A stretch of 64,000 nucleotides of DNA from Octopus vulgaris. Lineage: Eukaryota. A program made the position numbers and the translations under genes. The notes beneath the pieces were generated by a model that was not told the DNA's origin, searched no databases, and worked only from the letters and a program-made list of their open reading frames with translations. The number at the start of each line of letters is the position of its first letter. The stretch's first letter is position 1. The DNA is taken from the NCBI GenBank assembly GCA_951406725.2, contig OX597814.1, forward strand, positions 150,288,001 through 150,352,000, written 5' to 3'. Of the stretch, positions 10,490-61,360 are shown piece after piece.

Positions 10490-11120
10490 AGAGTAAAGTC
10501 TATTTGTCAACGTAAAGTAGTAGTCCTAATTAAGACGGTGTTATTACCTTTTTTAGCCCAAGGAAAACATATTTTCCAGCTGGCTATCGACCTCTAACAA
10601 GGGAGCTAATGTTCCCGCTCAGGCTTAAGCGGTACCTGTGGACCAAAGGCTTCTGTGTTATTTTCCTTCATCGGCATAGGATAACCGTTGGCTAGAGGTG
10701 GAGGCTTTACTCTGTAGTATCTTTACTTTATAGTACTGTTACTACCATTTTCTCGCTCAGAGATTTAAAAGTATTTGTTTTTCTCCTTACGAGATCAGTG
10801 ACAGTGTGTCACTTTAAACCTATATACCTCGAGCAAGGCCTAGTACTGCCATCTCTAGCCAACGGTTATCCTGTGCCGATGAAGATAAATAACCCAGAAA
10901 CCATTGATCCGCAGATAGCATTTAATGCTGAATGGAGGCATTAACTCCCTTGTTCGAGGTATAAGGACGCGGCTGTGCGTCAATAACCAGCTGGAAAAGC
11001 TGTTTCTTGGGACTAAAAAAGGTAGTAACACCGTCCTAATCAGGAGTACCACTTTACATTGGCAAATAGACTTTACTCTGCAGTACTGTTACTACTTATT
11101 TTTTACTCAGAGATTTAGAA
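10490..11120. mobile_element. Older foldback element: inverted arms ~10490-10700 and ~10850-11079, tail to ~11120
   Basis: CTTCATCGGCATAGGATAACCGTTGGCTAGAG pairs with CTCTAGCCAACGGTTATCCTGTGCCGATGAAG. The tail ACTCAGAGATT resembles the reverse complement of the 26450 tail. Confidence 0.7.
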
Positions 11121-12869
11121 CTAATGGTTTTTCTCTCACACACGCACGCACGCACGCACGCACGCACGCACACACGCACGCACGCACGCAGACACACACA
11201 CACACACACACACACACACACACACACACACACACACACACACACACTCAATACAGATGTGTGAAACTGAAAAATTATTTTACAGTGAATGTTATGTTGC
11301 AGACAGATAGAGCAAAGATTTCAGGTAGGAGTAACTGATGAGGTTATATGTCTATTGTTTAGCTAAAAATCCTTCCGTGTGACATAGCTTATCAATGAAT
11401 TTATTTCTGTTCAGTACATCACAATCTACATTGAACCCTTGCTTCATATGTTACACTGATTAGCAGACAAGTTACACTAATATTAGAGAAGCAGAAGGTG
11501 ACGAGCTTGTAGAATCGTTAACACGCCGAAGAAAATGCTTAGTAGCATTTCTCCTGTTGTGAGTTAAAAGTTCGTGGAAGTCGACATTATCTTTCACAGT
11601 TTCGGGGTTGCTAAAATAAGTGCTAGTCCTCTCTCCACTACAAAAATAAATTCAAACCTTGTGCATATCGCAGAAAGAATGTTAGAGAGACCAAGAGAGA
11701 GTGAGAGAGAAAAAATTAAGGTTGAAAAGCCGAATCGACAGAGCGCCGGACAATGTATCTTGCAGTATTTAGTTGCTCTGCTCTACATTCTGAGTTTAAA
11801 TCCATCGAATTCAGTTTTGCTTTTCATGTCTTCAGAATCAGTAAAATAAAGCGCTAATTAAGGTCTAGAGTCGTTGTAATCGACAGAACCCCTCACTCAG
11901 AAGCACCGATCTTATTCCTACAATAAGGGAGAGAGAGAGAAAGAGAGAGAGAAAGAGAGAGAAAGAGAGTGGGGCGGGGTAGAGAAATAGGAATAAAGAG
12001 ATGGAGAGAGAGAGACTTGCGGTTGATAGAGTTACAAAGAGCATGCCAGTATCTAACAATATTTCGTTAGAAACCGAAATCTTATTAAAACCATCTTTAC
12101 TTTATATACTTATAGGATCGATATAATAACTTACCACTCAGGTACTGGAGTCGATTTAATCGCCTATAAAACACCAGGAAGATCTTTTGTAGAGCGAACT
12201 GTTTACCGAGTTCAAATCCGGCTGAAGTCAGTTTTATTTTATATCTTTTGGGGGCCAATATAATTACGTGGTGGTGAAGTACTGGAGATGATTTTAATCA
12301 ACTATATCCTACCTCAAAAATCTCTCACGCCTCAACTTTTTCCATGAGAACACTATGCGGAGAGTGAACATACACTAAATAATATTTACTGATTTGGGGA
12401 AACTAGTCTTTTGTGAACACACTCATTTAATTTTGTGTTTACTTTTTACTCCATGCTTGTGTACTCACAGTATGGCATACTTGTGTACTAATAGTATGGA
12501 GTGAAAAGCATGTCTTGTTAATGTATGGCAATGACTGACTATGACAGAAATCAATATTTACATCTATATTAAGGTGGTCAGCTGGCAGAAGAATCTGTAC
12601 TGGCTTAGGGGCATTTCGCCCGACTTTACATTCTGACTTCATATGCCACTAGGATCGACTTTGCTATTCATCGTTTCGGGGTCAATAAAATAAGTACCAG
12701 TTGAGTACTAGGATCGATGGAATCGATTTACCCCTCCTCCTAAATTGTTAGCCTTGTGCAAATATTTGAAACCATTATCTATATATGCACTAAGGCAGTA
12801 AGCTGGATGAATCGTTAGCATGCCGGACAAAATACTTAGTGGTATTTTGTCCATCATTACATGCTGAGT

Positions 12870-13205
12870 AGTGAAGACACATGGATCAGTGGTTAGTGCG
12901 TCGAACTCACGACCGTGAGGTTGTGAGTTCAAATTCCGGACCGGGCTGCGTGTTGTGTTCTTGAGCAAGACACTTTATTTCACGTTGCTCCAGTTTACTC
13001 AGCTGTAGAAATGAGTTGTGATGTCACTGGCGTCAAGCTATATCGGCCTTTGCCCTTCCTTTGGATAACATCTGTGGCATGGAGAGGGGAGGCTGGTATG
13101 CGTGGGCGACTGCTGGTCTTCCAAAAACAAACTTGCCTGGACTTGTGCCTCGGAGGGTAACTTTCTAGGTCCAATCCCATGGTCATTCGTGACCGAAGGG
13201 GGTTT
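12870..13205 (+). mobile_element. tRNA-derived SINE (family C) nested in a family B SINE; another copy at ~36200-36492 and a related head at ~35965-36110 (-)
   Basis: A/B-box-like TGGATCAGTGG...GAGTTCAAATTCC. It is colinear with 36200-36492 and has a decayed TSD ACATGCTGAGT / ACATTCTAAGT. Confidence 0.75.
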
Positions 13206-58891: not shown

Positions 58892-59449
58892 GGCGTGTGA
58901 TCTACAAGGGAGATTACTTTAGGTTACTTTTTAGTTTACTTTCCAATTTCTAAAATCTCATTATATGTTAACTAAAGATTTTTGCAATGTGATCATCAAC
59001 GAGACGAAGGCATTTTAACAAAAAACCAAAAGGCAGTTGCGTTTTTACAAGAAACCAGCACTAAATTCACATCATTTCTTAAGGAAAAGAAACGTGCTAC
59101 TTTGCTGACTGACCTACAATTTAAACAGAGATCACTNNNNNNNNNNNNNNNNNNNNNNNNNNNNNNNNNNNNNNNNNNNNNNNNNNNNNNNNNNNNNNNN
59201 NNNNNNNNNNNNNNNNNNNNNNNNNNNNNNNNNNNNTTAGGTTATTTTTTAGTTTACTTTGCGTTAGTGCTACTTTCCGTGTGATCTACGTGAGCAAATT
59301 TACTTTGGTGAGTGATTCACGCGCTTATTTTAATTATTAACTGGTTTTCTTATTATTAAAACAGTAAGAATTTAAAAGAAAATACATTTAGCATGTACAA
59401 AATAATTCTAAAAGTAACCTAAAGTAATCTCCCTTGTAGATAACACGCC
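58892..59449. mobile_element. MITE-like inverted repeat spanning the assembly gap
   Basis: GGCGTGTGATCTACAAGGGAGATTACTTTAGGTTACTTTT pairs with AAAAGTAACCTAAAGTAATCTCCCTTGTAGATAACACGCC. Confidence 0.6.
59137..59236. other. Assembly gap (100 N)
   Basis: Run of N. Confidence 1.
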
Positions 59450-60344
59450 GAAATATGCATGGTCAACTATATACATGATATCAGCTATTGCAGTTAATCA
59501 GTGTTAACTATTGCAGTTAATCAGTGTTAATTGCAGTTAATCAGTGTTAACTTACTTTGATATTACCTTGTCTAAAATGCTTCGAATAATATGGTGGCTA
59601 TATTGATAAAAACTAGAATCATACAGGTCTATGTATACCTCAGTACACTGTCAAAAGTATTATTAAATTCTATACTGAATGACTGATTCCCGTTCCGTTC
59701 ACTTTGTTTCACAGATTTCTGCCGAAATACCCCGACACCCTCTCACAAGGACATTCATAATTACTCCCTATATCTGTACATTACTTCTTCTATTCATACC
59801 TTCTTCTTTTGGAGTCAAAGAAGAAGGCTGCAATCTAGCAAATAATGAAGAGAAAAACATCCTTTTTCTTTCTCACGATTTGTCGAAAGAAAAATAATCC
59901 GAAACTTCAGATGCTTCGCTGCTAAAAAAAAAAAGTCAAGCTTATCCAACTCTTCTGAACTCTCCTACGCTGGCTGTCATATTCCTGTGATAGATATTAC
60001 CAGTTTTTTTCTGATACCGGATTTTACTCTACTCTTTCAAAATTTTCAGTGTCATTACAGTTAACCTTCGCAAAATCTAAGATTGCTCTTACGGAGTCTT
60101 GAAAACTACTCTTCACACACACACGCACACACACGCAGACATACACACACACAGATATACACACGCAAACACACACACGCGCACACGCACGCGTGCACAT
60201 GCGTACACGTATTGCTTTGTCCATTATCACGGGCAATGCAGGATACTATTAGCTGTATATAGTTAAAAAAAAAAACACACACACACATAATTATGTATGT
60301 ATTCTATCTTTTTGTCTCTCTATCTTTATATATTGTTTTATTCT

Positions 60345-61360
60345 TTTATTTGATTCAGTCAATTGACTGCGGTCATGCTGGACAAATCGACCCCAGAACT
60401 TATTCTTTGTAACCCAAGCACTTATTCTATCGGTGTCTTTACCGAACCGCTAAGTTACGGTGACGTAAACACACCAGCATCGGTTGTCAAGCGACGGTGG
60501 GGATGCAAACACAGACACACAAATACATACATACATACATACATACATACATACATACATAATACATACATGCATACATAAATATATATATATATCAATA
60601 AATGGTGGGGTTGTGTTGACCGCACGTAGAGAAATGATAAGAGAGGAAAAATTATAAGAAGGCAGAATGCTAAATTGAAAGTAAATTTTAATAAAAATGG
60701 GTGTATGGAAAATTAAAAAAAGAAAAAATAATAAATCAAACCGGTTTTCATTGCAAAGCAAATTATCAAGATTTGGAAGGCTAAAAGAAATATTTTTTGA
60801 AATTGCTTAGTTTAAGCACCACTTTTAAATCACATGGATCTTATTCCTCCAAAGTAAGTTTTCCAAGGACTATTATTGAACTCTAAAAGTATAAAGACCC
60901 TACAATGTATCGGTTTACTTATTTATTAATTTTTGTATATGTTTATTATTATTATGTTTTTGAAAAAAAAACATTGTAAATTTCTTTTTTCCCTTTCCTC
61001 AGTTTAAAAAAACATTTTTCCCCTTCCAAATCTTGATAATTTGCTTTGCGATGAAAACCGATTTGATTTATTATTTTTTTCTTTTTAATTTTCCATACAC
61101 CCATTTTTATTAACATTTAATTTAATTTCAATTTATATTTCTGCCATCTTATAATTTTTCCTCTCCTATATATATATATATATATATATATATATATATA
61201 CGACAGTCTTCTGTCAGTTTCAGTCTACCAAATCCACTCACAAGGCTTTGGTCGACCCGAGGTTATAGTAGAAGACACCTGCTCAAGGTGCCACGCAGTG
61301 GGACTGAACCCGGAACCATGTGTTTGGTAAGCAGGCCACTTACCACACATCCACGCCTGC
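60345..61360 (-). mobile_element. SINE family A copy split by the PLE-related insertion in its internal microsatellite
   Basis: The tail half is at ~60345-60520 and the head half at ~61201-61360, in the same orientation. Confidence 0.75.
60594..61165. mobile_element. Non-autonomous PLE-related element: tail 60594-60640, inverted arms 60641-60780 and 61022-61165, each with a hammerhead-like motif (60733-60774 -, 61028-61069 +)
   Basis: The tail is nearly identical to 371-416. The motif is AAATC-TTGATAA-TTTGC/TTT/GCAAT-GAAA-ACCGGT-TT-GATTT. It sits in the (TA)n tract of a SINE. Confidence 0.85.

Follow-up and report, generated by a model that had tools for sequence, protein, structure and literature searches.

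Seven inverted repeats with a tail on one arm

We analyzed 64,000 nucleotides (nt) of the Octopus vulgaris genome (contig OX597814.1, positions 150,288,001 to 150,352,000; hereafter the window, with coordinates counted from its first letter) and focused on seven elements, E1 to E7, in which a pair of inverted arms is embedded in microsatellite (Table 1). The window is animal-type DNA of 36% G+C with 83 merged simple-repeat tracts. A first reading of the same DNA, the original prediction, had described one arm of each element as running directly into the simple repeat and the other as continuing into a tail before reaching it, and this anatomy was confirmed in all seven. The overhang, found on one arm only, measured 48 nt in E1, 57 in E2, 149 in E3, 36 in E4, 41 in E5, 94 in E6 and 46-47 in E7 (overall, 36-149 nt), and no element had simple repeat between its arms. 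Dinucleotide shuffles never matched the arm score (0/100 for each of E2, E3, E5, E6 and E7; 0/20 for E4); E1, whose arm match had a BLAST E of 0, was left out of shuffling. The seven are genuine inverted repeats inside microsatellites, and most of them are likely insertions of Penelope-type retrotransposons (Penelope-like elements, PLEs).

A census of inverted pairs was performed to check whether the earlier reader had picked asymmetric cases only. It covered 881 tract pairs along with 51 of the 82 inter-tract islands (60-2,500 nt), and yielded eight anchored inverted pairs: the seven asymmetric elements E1-E7 and one symmetric mariner-type element at 9549-10412. Excluded were low-complexity pairs, rows nested in E1, E4 or the mariner, pairs without tract contact, one element repeated against its second flank tract, and pairs of a multi-copy dispersed repeat, which we take to be a SINE. 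The tract-pair scan missed E3 (a matter of scanning-window size), which the island scan picked up. If site choice were independent at 50:50, asymmetry in 7/7 elements would have P = 0.008, or 0.03 counting five lineages.

The elements were less diverse than the original prediction had it. Far from being mostly unrelated, E1 falls into a group with E7 (z = 22) and E2 into a second one with E5 (z = 25), so that there are at most five independent lineages. Nor are the tails unique sequence, given that the E2 tail recurs within E2 and that those of E1 and E7 are alike. The limits of E2 also required correction: it ends at about 11136 and not at 11120, and its tail-less flank is (AG)n and not (TA)n.

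Table 1. Positions of the inverted elements, their parts and relatives, and the mariner-type control (RT, reverse transcriptase; EN, endonuclease; ORF, open reading frame; UTR, untranslated region).
Feature	Position	Strand	Description
E1, whole	370-7414		PLE RT and C-terminal GIY-YIG nuclease
E1 tail	370-417	-	48 nt, on inverted arm only; E7 tail identical at 45/46 nt
E1 inverted 5'-truncated copy	418-3309	-	RT from ~residue 52 of homologues, EN, 3'-UTR
E1 forward tail-less copy	3310-7414	+	ORF1 remnant 3310-4371, RT ORF ~4368-6200, EN, 3'-UTR
E1 linker and nuclease	~6237-6653	+	CX4CxxC linker; GIY-YIG EN with CCHH
E1 hammerhead-like motif	7287-7317	+	U3-A8 core variant, own descriptor; mirror copy 544-514 (-)
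E1 flank, tail-less side	7415-7452		(TA)n
E1 flank, left side	321-369		(CA)n(TA)n
Mariner-type control	9549-10412		Symmetric terminal inverted repeats; outside the class
E2 tail-less arm	10490-10701	-	Runs into (AG)n, 4 nt in common; hammerhead-like motif 10674-10641
E2 tailed copy	10705-11136	+	Exceeds one 350-nt unit; arm 10849-11079, outer tail 11080-11136
E2 tailed copy, inner part			Border motif of previous unit 10705-10729 (16-nt local duplication), internal tail 10730-10790
E2 tailed-arm hammerhead-like motif	10876-10909	+	
E3	17820-18069		149-nt overhang on left, arms 17969-18016 and 18022-18069 (48 nt), between (TA)n tracts
E4	21008-22478		Tail 21008-21043, arms 21044-21659 and 21866-22478, T-rich spacer
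E4 weak hammerhead-like motif	22354-22385	+	p = 0.03, core mismatch
E5	26449-26876		Tail 26449-26489, arms 26490-26671 and 26693-26876; relative of E2
E5 hammerhead-like motif	26694-26662	-	Spans the 21-nt spacer
Non-inverted tandem, E2/E5 group	32348-32931	+	362-nt unit, hammerhead 32668-32697; tail end in (TA)n
Further copy, E2/E5 group	37527-37681		Tail-less; end in (TA)n, 65 nt before that of the tandem
E6	54760-55139		Tail-less arm 54760-54788, 228-nt spacer, arm 55017-55045, 94-nt overhang on right
E7	60594-61165		Tail 60594-60640, tailed arm 60641-60805, tail-less copy 60806-61165
E7 hammerhead-like motifs	60769-60738 and 61033-61064	- and +	Both arms

Families of the elements and positions of their ends

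Judged by the proteins it encodes, E1 is a Penelope-like retrotransposon. Its RT matched Pfam RVT_1 over the cutoff (E = 7e-08), and its GIY-YIG domain matched PF01541 (E = 0.00017) at 22.3 bits, slightly below the cutoff of 22.6. The two cysteines and two histidines of the nuclease CCHH motif were invariant across 6/6 aligned sequences, as was the CX4CxxC linker. Searches with the RT gave 732 homologues at E <= 1e-20, many of which combine RT and GIY-YIG; the named ones were mostly molluscan and included one from Octopus bimaculoides with 57% identity. A PDB sequence search with the same query returned 0 matches. The domain layout, rather than a tree, places E1, and it fits the Neptune or Nematis type. 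The CX2-5CxxC linker is common to Neptune, Nematis and Naiad (PMC8557442). An assignment to Naiad was rejected, since the nuclease of E1 is C-terminal, whereas that of Naiad is N-terminal and comes without a canonical hammerhead. One 12-mer from each of E1-E6 had no exact match in the supplement of PMC8557442, a weak test for E3, E4 and E6.

The arms of E1 (418-3309 and 4520-7414) differ at 7 positions over ~2,892 nt, and a 10-nt palindrome (3300-3309) lies at the inner end of the inverted copy. Compared with three homologues, the forward copy begins 27-50 codons inside ORF1. Its reading frame is broken near 4490 and again near 6200, the second break being the same in the two arms. We found no upstream direct repeat in E1, that is, no direct pseudo-long terminal repeat (pLTR) or partial tandem, and only the inverted form is present; because the forward copy is truncated within ORF1, this loss is expected, as for 5'-truncated copies generally. 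As a separate observation, six of the seven arm differences lie within the outermost 412 nt (P ~5e-5; 0.003 for the three clear substitutions), a clustering that could stem from gene conversion, assembly homogenization or a template switch. A slippery heptamer, T-TTT-TTA (4332-4338), lies in the ORF1 frame shortly upstream of the RT ORF, itself read in the -1 frame, and the 'FL' that it encodes was invariant in 4/4 ORF1 sequences. Folding predicted no stable structure downstream of the heptamer. A -1 ribosomal frameshift at the ORF1/RT boundary is likely from these sequence features; an ORF1 frameshift is already mentioned in the legend to Fig. 1 of PMC8557442.

E7 is of PLE origin by virtue of its 3'-UTR and tail homology to E1. 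Its arms (60641-60805 and 61000-61165) are 87% identical, the tail is on the left, and the inner junction carries a short hairpin. While the tail is nearly identical to that of E1, the adjacent arm is only ~80% identical, and E7 thus represents a 3'-UTR fragment of a related family. The tail would then be the most conserved part of the pair, as expected for a cis element. The tail common to E1 and E7 is rich in A and C and is predicted to form a weak hairpin (z = -0.9), and folding of 10 sequences revealed no fold shared among tails (z from +0.9 to -2.6). In E7, a three-way comparison that asked whether two distinct templates had been used was non-significant (10 vs 4 sites).

E2, E5 and the tandem at 32348-32931 make up one non-coding group (z = 9.6-25), with measurable unit lengths of 350 nt in E2 and 362 nt in the tandem. 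The E2 arms (10490-10701 and 10849-11079) are 76% identical with the tail on the right, and those of E5 are 87% identical with the tail on the left. A copy of the E2 tail lies inside the element at 10721-10785 (80%), where it forms the start of the next 350-nt unit. At no locus of the group in the window did we find two complete hammerhead-bearing units in tandem. The hammerhead-like motifs of E2 and E5, considered below, make it likely that both are non-autonomous PLE derivatives. The copies at 32348-32931 and 37527-37681 are 99-100% identical, both start 13-15 nt past the predicted cut site, and their ends lie 65 nt apart, each at a TAT adjoining (TA)n; their sequences suggest a ribozyme-cut template with two start sites. 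Elsewhere in the group, a tandem segmental duplication (24519-25636 and 25637-26675, 96% identity) includes a copy of the tailed arm of E5, and the duplication is therefore younger than the E5 insertion. The copy of the E5 left arm at 25410-25636 was rejected as a separate insertion, as it sits within this duplication.

For the remaining three elements there was little beyond the architecture. The arms of E4 are 99% identical (5/616 columns differ), and its tail is on the left, with 29 of the 36 nt remaining when a shared TA run is counted as arm. Those of E3 are 98% identical around a 5-nt loop, whereas the E6 arms are 29 nt only, at 90% identity. Comparison of 15 end sequences gave no relative at z > 3.5 for E3, E4 or E6, and our descriptor found no significant hammerhead in E3 (p = 0.45) or E6 (p = 0.11). 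A degenerate hammerhead-like stretch seen by eye on the + strand of E3 (~17891-17946), which would reverse its polarity, was not supported by the descriptor. E3 and E6 are the weakest cases of the class, because the E6 arms are very short and the E3 overhang is far beyond the published 30-40 nt. In sum, the PLE origin claimed by the original prediction stands for E1 and E7, is likely for E2 and E5 on account of their hammerheads, and is weakly indicated for E4; in E3 and E6 the architecture is all that speaks for it.

Hammerhead motifs are a hallmark of PLEs (PMC4209133), and we scored them with our own descriptor, with p values taken per region against 100 shuffles. Motifs pointing outward were found in both arms of E1 (p = 0.01), E2 and E7 and in the left copy of E5 (p = 0.01-0.02 overall); those in three of the four E2/E5 arms were of the type I minimal form (p = 0.01-0.02), and the right arm of E5 begins inside the motif. 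They sit 97-172 nt before the tail border, and in E1 the predicted cut is 97 nt upstream of the tail-less end. Because the hammerheads point outward, the 3' end of each arm faces the microsatellite and the arms meet head to head, a polarity supported in 4/7 elements. The p values are optimistic because the descriptor was loosened after the motifs had been inspected: a strict version gave three matches, none within E1-E7, and was then loosened twice. No hammerhead was found in the mariner control with this descriptor. A MAFFT alignment of eight hammerhead motifs was of insufficient quality for a covariance model, and tblastn with 123 PLE proteins detected no coding remnant in the window outside E1.

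As a test, the original prediction had proposed to ask whether the tail-less arm ends at a fixed nucleotide in each family while the inner breakpoints vary, and in the window this is borne out by the two available pairs, E1/E7 and E2/E5. Allowing for shared bases, the tail-less ends are compatible with one aligned nucleotide in each pair; that of the copy at 37527-37681 is ~6-8 columns off the E2/E5 point. The probability of two such coincidences is ~0.1-0.2% by our own arithmetic, which spreads ends over 150-200 nt and concerns two pairs only. Tail ends recur as well, within 1-3 nt in E1/E7 and at the same column in E2 and at 32931, with E5 ending ~17 nt earlier. Inner breakpoints differ, as shown by arms of 2.9 kb in E1 vs 165 nt in E7 and by the difference between E2 and E5. 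Neither symmetric, fixed terminal inverted repeats (TIRs) with a fixed interior nor random tail-less ends were observed for these families in the window.

The tail-less junctions share bases with their flanks, namely 1, 4, 2, 7, 4, 3 and 3 (or 0) nt in E1 to E7, the 7 nt of E4 being common to its end and (TA)n. The sum of 21-24 compares with a null of 7.0 for random positions in the same elements (P = 0.0003-0.0015), and four reduced sets, from which relatives or weak cases had been removed, gave P = 0.002-0.008. The bases shared at the E2 junction are those of its own (AG)n flank and not TA; the other elements share theirs with (TA)n. The tail-less copy of E1 and of E7 is the longer of the two and includes the spacer, which in E2 and E5 is part of the tailed copy. 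The long copy of E2 extends one full unit back and halts at the border motif of the previous unit, where 16 nt are duplicated.

How the one-tailed insertions may have formed

We consider it probable that each insertion was made by two target-primed complementary DNAs (cDNAs), one per target strand. The PLE nuclease would nick a (TA)n or (AG)n tract on each strand; cutting and extension of both target strands have been shown in vitro for another PLE (PMC11167929). One nick would prime reverse transcription from the end of the tail, and the second nick would do so where tail and pLTR meet, the asymmetry of 7/7 elements being what points to a different start site for each strand. At the border, the site would be chosen via pairing of a few bases between the nicked repeat and a repeat-like RNA motif, which the junction microhomology makes the probable route. 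Both cDNAs would then stop at variable points and be joined head to head, producing variable arms and spacers; the variable inner ends themselves are observed. The original prediction had already proposed double priming at these two positions, and in this it agrees with the biochemistry of PMC11167929, though the proposal goes no further than a likely reading and is less new than was implied, the architecture being already drawn in Fig. 2 of PMC8557442 and both start sites having been mapped in vitro.

We lean, modestly, towards a single tandem transcript used by both primers, in the manner of L1 twin priming, rather than two separate RNAs. The one-transcript version would force the one-tail rule and fits the junction of E2, which lies at the point where the opposite arm would prime on one tandem RNA, albeit in a single case. 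A stronger version, which we regard as doubtful, holds that asymmetric twin priming on one tandem RNA is obligate in microsatellite-targeting PLEs, that the one-tailed inverted insertion is a programmed product, and that a sizeable fraction of the cephalopod annotations as miniature inverted-repeat transposable elements (MITEs) or unclassified TIR elements are hammerhead-bearing PLE derivatives. The second strand would there anneal to a target-like border motif, TA-like for TA targets and CT-like for the AG target. We found no paper that states a coupled double-priming model for PLEs, in a search of mainly open-access literature, and one may be in print.

Several points weigh against the two-cDNA reading. 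The sample is seven elements from a single window, with at most five independent lineages and junction anchors set by hand; E3 and E6, with overhangs of 149 and 94 nt, bring neither a significant hammerhead nor a relative in the window; and the microhomology at the tail-less junction of E1 is 1 nt only. The hammerhead descriptor was tuned on these very motifs, and E4 and E5 have equally weak matches in the inward direction (p = 0.02 and 0.03). Rfam (E <= 1) gave no hammerhead among the 150 of 167 matches listed, of which none reached the gathering score and almost every one was a simple-repeat match to a miRNA or snoRNA model. Both cDNAs of E7 end within the 3'-UTR, and the one-RNA version would require a loss of kilobases at the junction. 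In PAc, a Poseidon element of Anolis, the two strands did not differ in start site, and the start site lacked homology to the cut DNA (PMC11167929), which sits badly with a strict one-tail rule and with the microhomology, though PAc belongs to another clade. Lastly, nuclease trimming at a TA-like motif predicts the identical microhomology.

Trimming belongs to a somewhat unlikely alternative that shares the PLE origin: fold-back self-priming on antisense RNA or cDNA would give a hairpin, and the GIY-YIG nuclease would trim one arm at the TA-like border motif upon integration. Self-priming has been inferred from palindromes at inverted junctions (PMC3846280) and the tail attributed to EN-mediated resolution (PMC8557442). 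The palindrome of E1, the 5-nt-loop hairpin of E3 and the short hairpin of E7 speak for this route, and a TA-cutting nuclease would likewise leave microhomology at the border. However, since the tail is missing from the longer copy of E1 and of E7, one folded-back, sense-templated cDNA could not supply both spacer and tail, and ownership of the spacer changes between E1/E7 and E2/E5. Tail ends are moreover RT start sites on sense RNA in PMC11167929, which makes trimming unnecessary. That two PLEs inserted independently and successively, in opposite orientations, into the same microsatellite is improbable. The window is rich in orphan PLE 3' ends next to (TA)n (6 loci, by hammerhead or homology), and the arms of E2, E5 and E7 diverge by 13-24%, as separate insertions might; yet a repeat remnant between the arms occurred in 0/7 elements, the arms are always of one family though many families are present, the two E1 arms have a common frame break and differ so little, and the one-tail rule is left unexplained.

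The ends of MITEs are symmetric and fixed. We consider it very improbable that the seven are MITEs or non-autonomous DNA transposons with TA target duplications, the overhang being unrelated neighboring DNA. The idea draws on E2-E7 being short and non-coding with inverted ends, and, TA being self-complementary, the ends of E4 and E5 can be read as carrying a TA...TA pseudo-duplication. Such a duplication is unreadable inside (TA)n, and a pseudo-duplication follows trivially from any TA in the arms. The overhang is instead family sequence, as the E1/E7 tails and the internal recurrence of the E2 tail indicate; E1 encodes RT and GIY-YIG and no transposase; and arm length and inner structure vary within a family (E1 vs E7, E2 vs E5). 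Terminal repeats are asymmetric in 7/7 elements, whereas the genuine mariner in the window is symmetric and without a hammerhead. For E1, E2, E5 and E7 the MITE reading is largely refuted, and it keeps some room in E3 and E6. Artefacts of assembly or of read fold-back are hardly credible. The arms of E1 and E4 are >99% identical, 6/7 of the E1 differences are confined to the outer 412 nt and E3 is a near-perfect hairpin, as an artefact might leave them; against this, the arms of E2, E5 and E7 are only 76-87% identical, spacers of 5-1,210 nt are non-mirrored, flanks are not mirrored, and ends recur at one position in separate loci. Two target-primed cDNAs remain our preferred explanation.

Other repeats in the window

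At 58144-58529 lies an older inverted pair (68%) whose left arm has a hammerhead-like motif (p = 0.01) and which lacks a long microsatellite flank; it is possibly a decayed eighth member of the class. The six orphan PLE-like 3' ends beside (TA)n, which have no inverted partner, lie at 225-320, 8222-8432, 25245-25345, 26907-27100, 55225-55440 and 56741-57327. Hammerhead-like motifs occur in 5/6 of them (p = 0.01-0.05), and the copies at 225-320 and 8222-8432 are of one family, with ends within 2 nt. A complex (TA)n-flanked block lies at 55225-57327, with hammerhead-like motifs on both strands, dispersed repeats inserted mid-block and a 67-nt inner inverted repeat (55735-55801 and 56741-56806). 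An assembly gap of 100 N lies within 58889-59452 and has a 43-nt inverted repeat (95%) and a 24-nt direct repeat around it, so that the structure there is unreliable. A minus-strand frame at 54044-54560 ends beside a simple-repeat tract and has no Pfam match; we presume from its likeness that it is the C-terminal end of a CR1-type LINE protein.

Decayed mariner/Tc1-like remnants were present at 9549-10412, 43455-44300, 23609-24064, 16273-17177 and 28150-29280. The relative of the control at ~43455-44300 is 73.5% identical to it over 547 columns and retains a remnant of a Mos1-type helix-turn-helix, and HTH_48 matches were found at 23612-24064 and 43654-44022. The remnants at 16273-17177 and 28150-29280 have no Pfam match, and presumably are of Tc1 type.

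Comparison with known systems

PLEs with a short tail extension and inverted pLTR copies are established, as the original prediction said (PMC8557442, PMC3846280, PMC8969392). The window contributes further examples and no new class, the one-tailed architecture being already published: Fig. 2 of PMC8557442 (Craig 2021) shows an inverted 5'-truncated copy, a tail of 30-40 bp that is often one-ended, and (TA)n targets. E1 and E7 resemble the EN-containing (EN+) Neptune/Nematis-type PLEs described there in their RT with C-terminal GIY-YIG, CX2-5CxxC linker and CCHH, in an ORF1 in another frame, a 3'-proximal hammerhead and 5' truncation, and in the one-ended tail, inverted truncated copy and (TA)n target. 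Unlike in that description, the E1/E7 tail is 47-48 nt long, the inverted arm of E1 reaches 2.9 kb, and a direct pLTR is absent from E1.

In the in vitro work on PAc, a pair of RT start sites delimits the tail (PMC11167929, Frangieh 2024), and the AC-rich tail of E1/E7, with its weak predicted hairpin, is a point of likeness to it. There, two fixed 3' ends bound the tail, one start lying 85-92 nt past the hammerhead cut (our arithmetic from that paper), and both strands are extendable; here the corresponding ends lie ~90-170 nt past the cut. PAc differs in having no strand bias of start sites and no target homology, in contrast to the 7/7 asymmetry and the bases shared by border and target here, and the main text of PMC11167929 offers no explanation of inverted insertions. 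The Penelope insertions of Adineta vaga have inverted pLTRs, an optional 31-bp tail on one of them and palindromes at the inverted junction, for which the authors proposed antisense self-priming (PMC3846280); they differ in having target duplications of 8-10 bp, which would be invisible inside the microsatellites here.

The group of E2, E5 and the 32348-32931 tandem is like the minimal-hammerhead PLE fragments and non-LTR retrozymes (PMC4209133, bioRxiv 10.64898/2026.07.22.740005) in its type I minimal hammerhead and its palindromic loop 3, and its non-coding repeats of 350-362 nt may correspond to the tandem units of those elements. Pairs of hammerheads on opposite strands, 100-700 bp apart, were already noted in PMC4209133; the portions of these two accounts used here treat tandem arrays or single motifs and do not analyze the one-tailed inverted form. 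L1 twin or dual priming (PMC2837659) is similar in that a second nick primes a second cDNA, with microhomology and a head-to-head inversion. It differs in using non-overlapping parts of one RNA and a variable internal site, whereas both cDNAs here cover the same 3' sequence from fixed sites, and a tandem RNA or two RNAs are therefore needed.

MITEs and Tc1-mariner derivatives are like the class in being short and non-coding with inverted ends and TA-rich flanks, and unlike it in lacking the one-sided family tail, variable arms and hammerheads seen here, as well as the RT of E1. Mis-annotation of such elements as MITEs, as the original prediction suggested, is plausible. Recent insertions in the annotated O. 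vulgaris genome include 65 families labeled MITE and 49 labeled unclassified TIR (Table 1 of PMC13282606), and PMC8969392 alerts curators to inverted pLTRs and short 3' extensions. How PLEs form tandem and inverted insertions is named as an open question in PMC8557442 and PMC11167929. What the window may add are three hints: the strict coupling to one tail, the microhomology of the border with the target and the E2 junction, which resembles twin priming. If these were true genome-wide, they would link the in vitro result of two start sites to genomic inverted repeats, and would provide a rule for recovering non-coding PLE derivatives from MITE and TIR bins.

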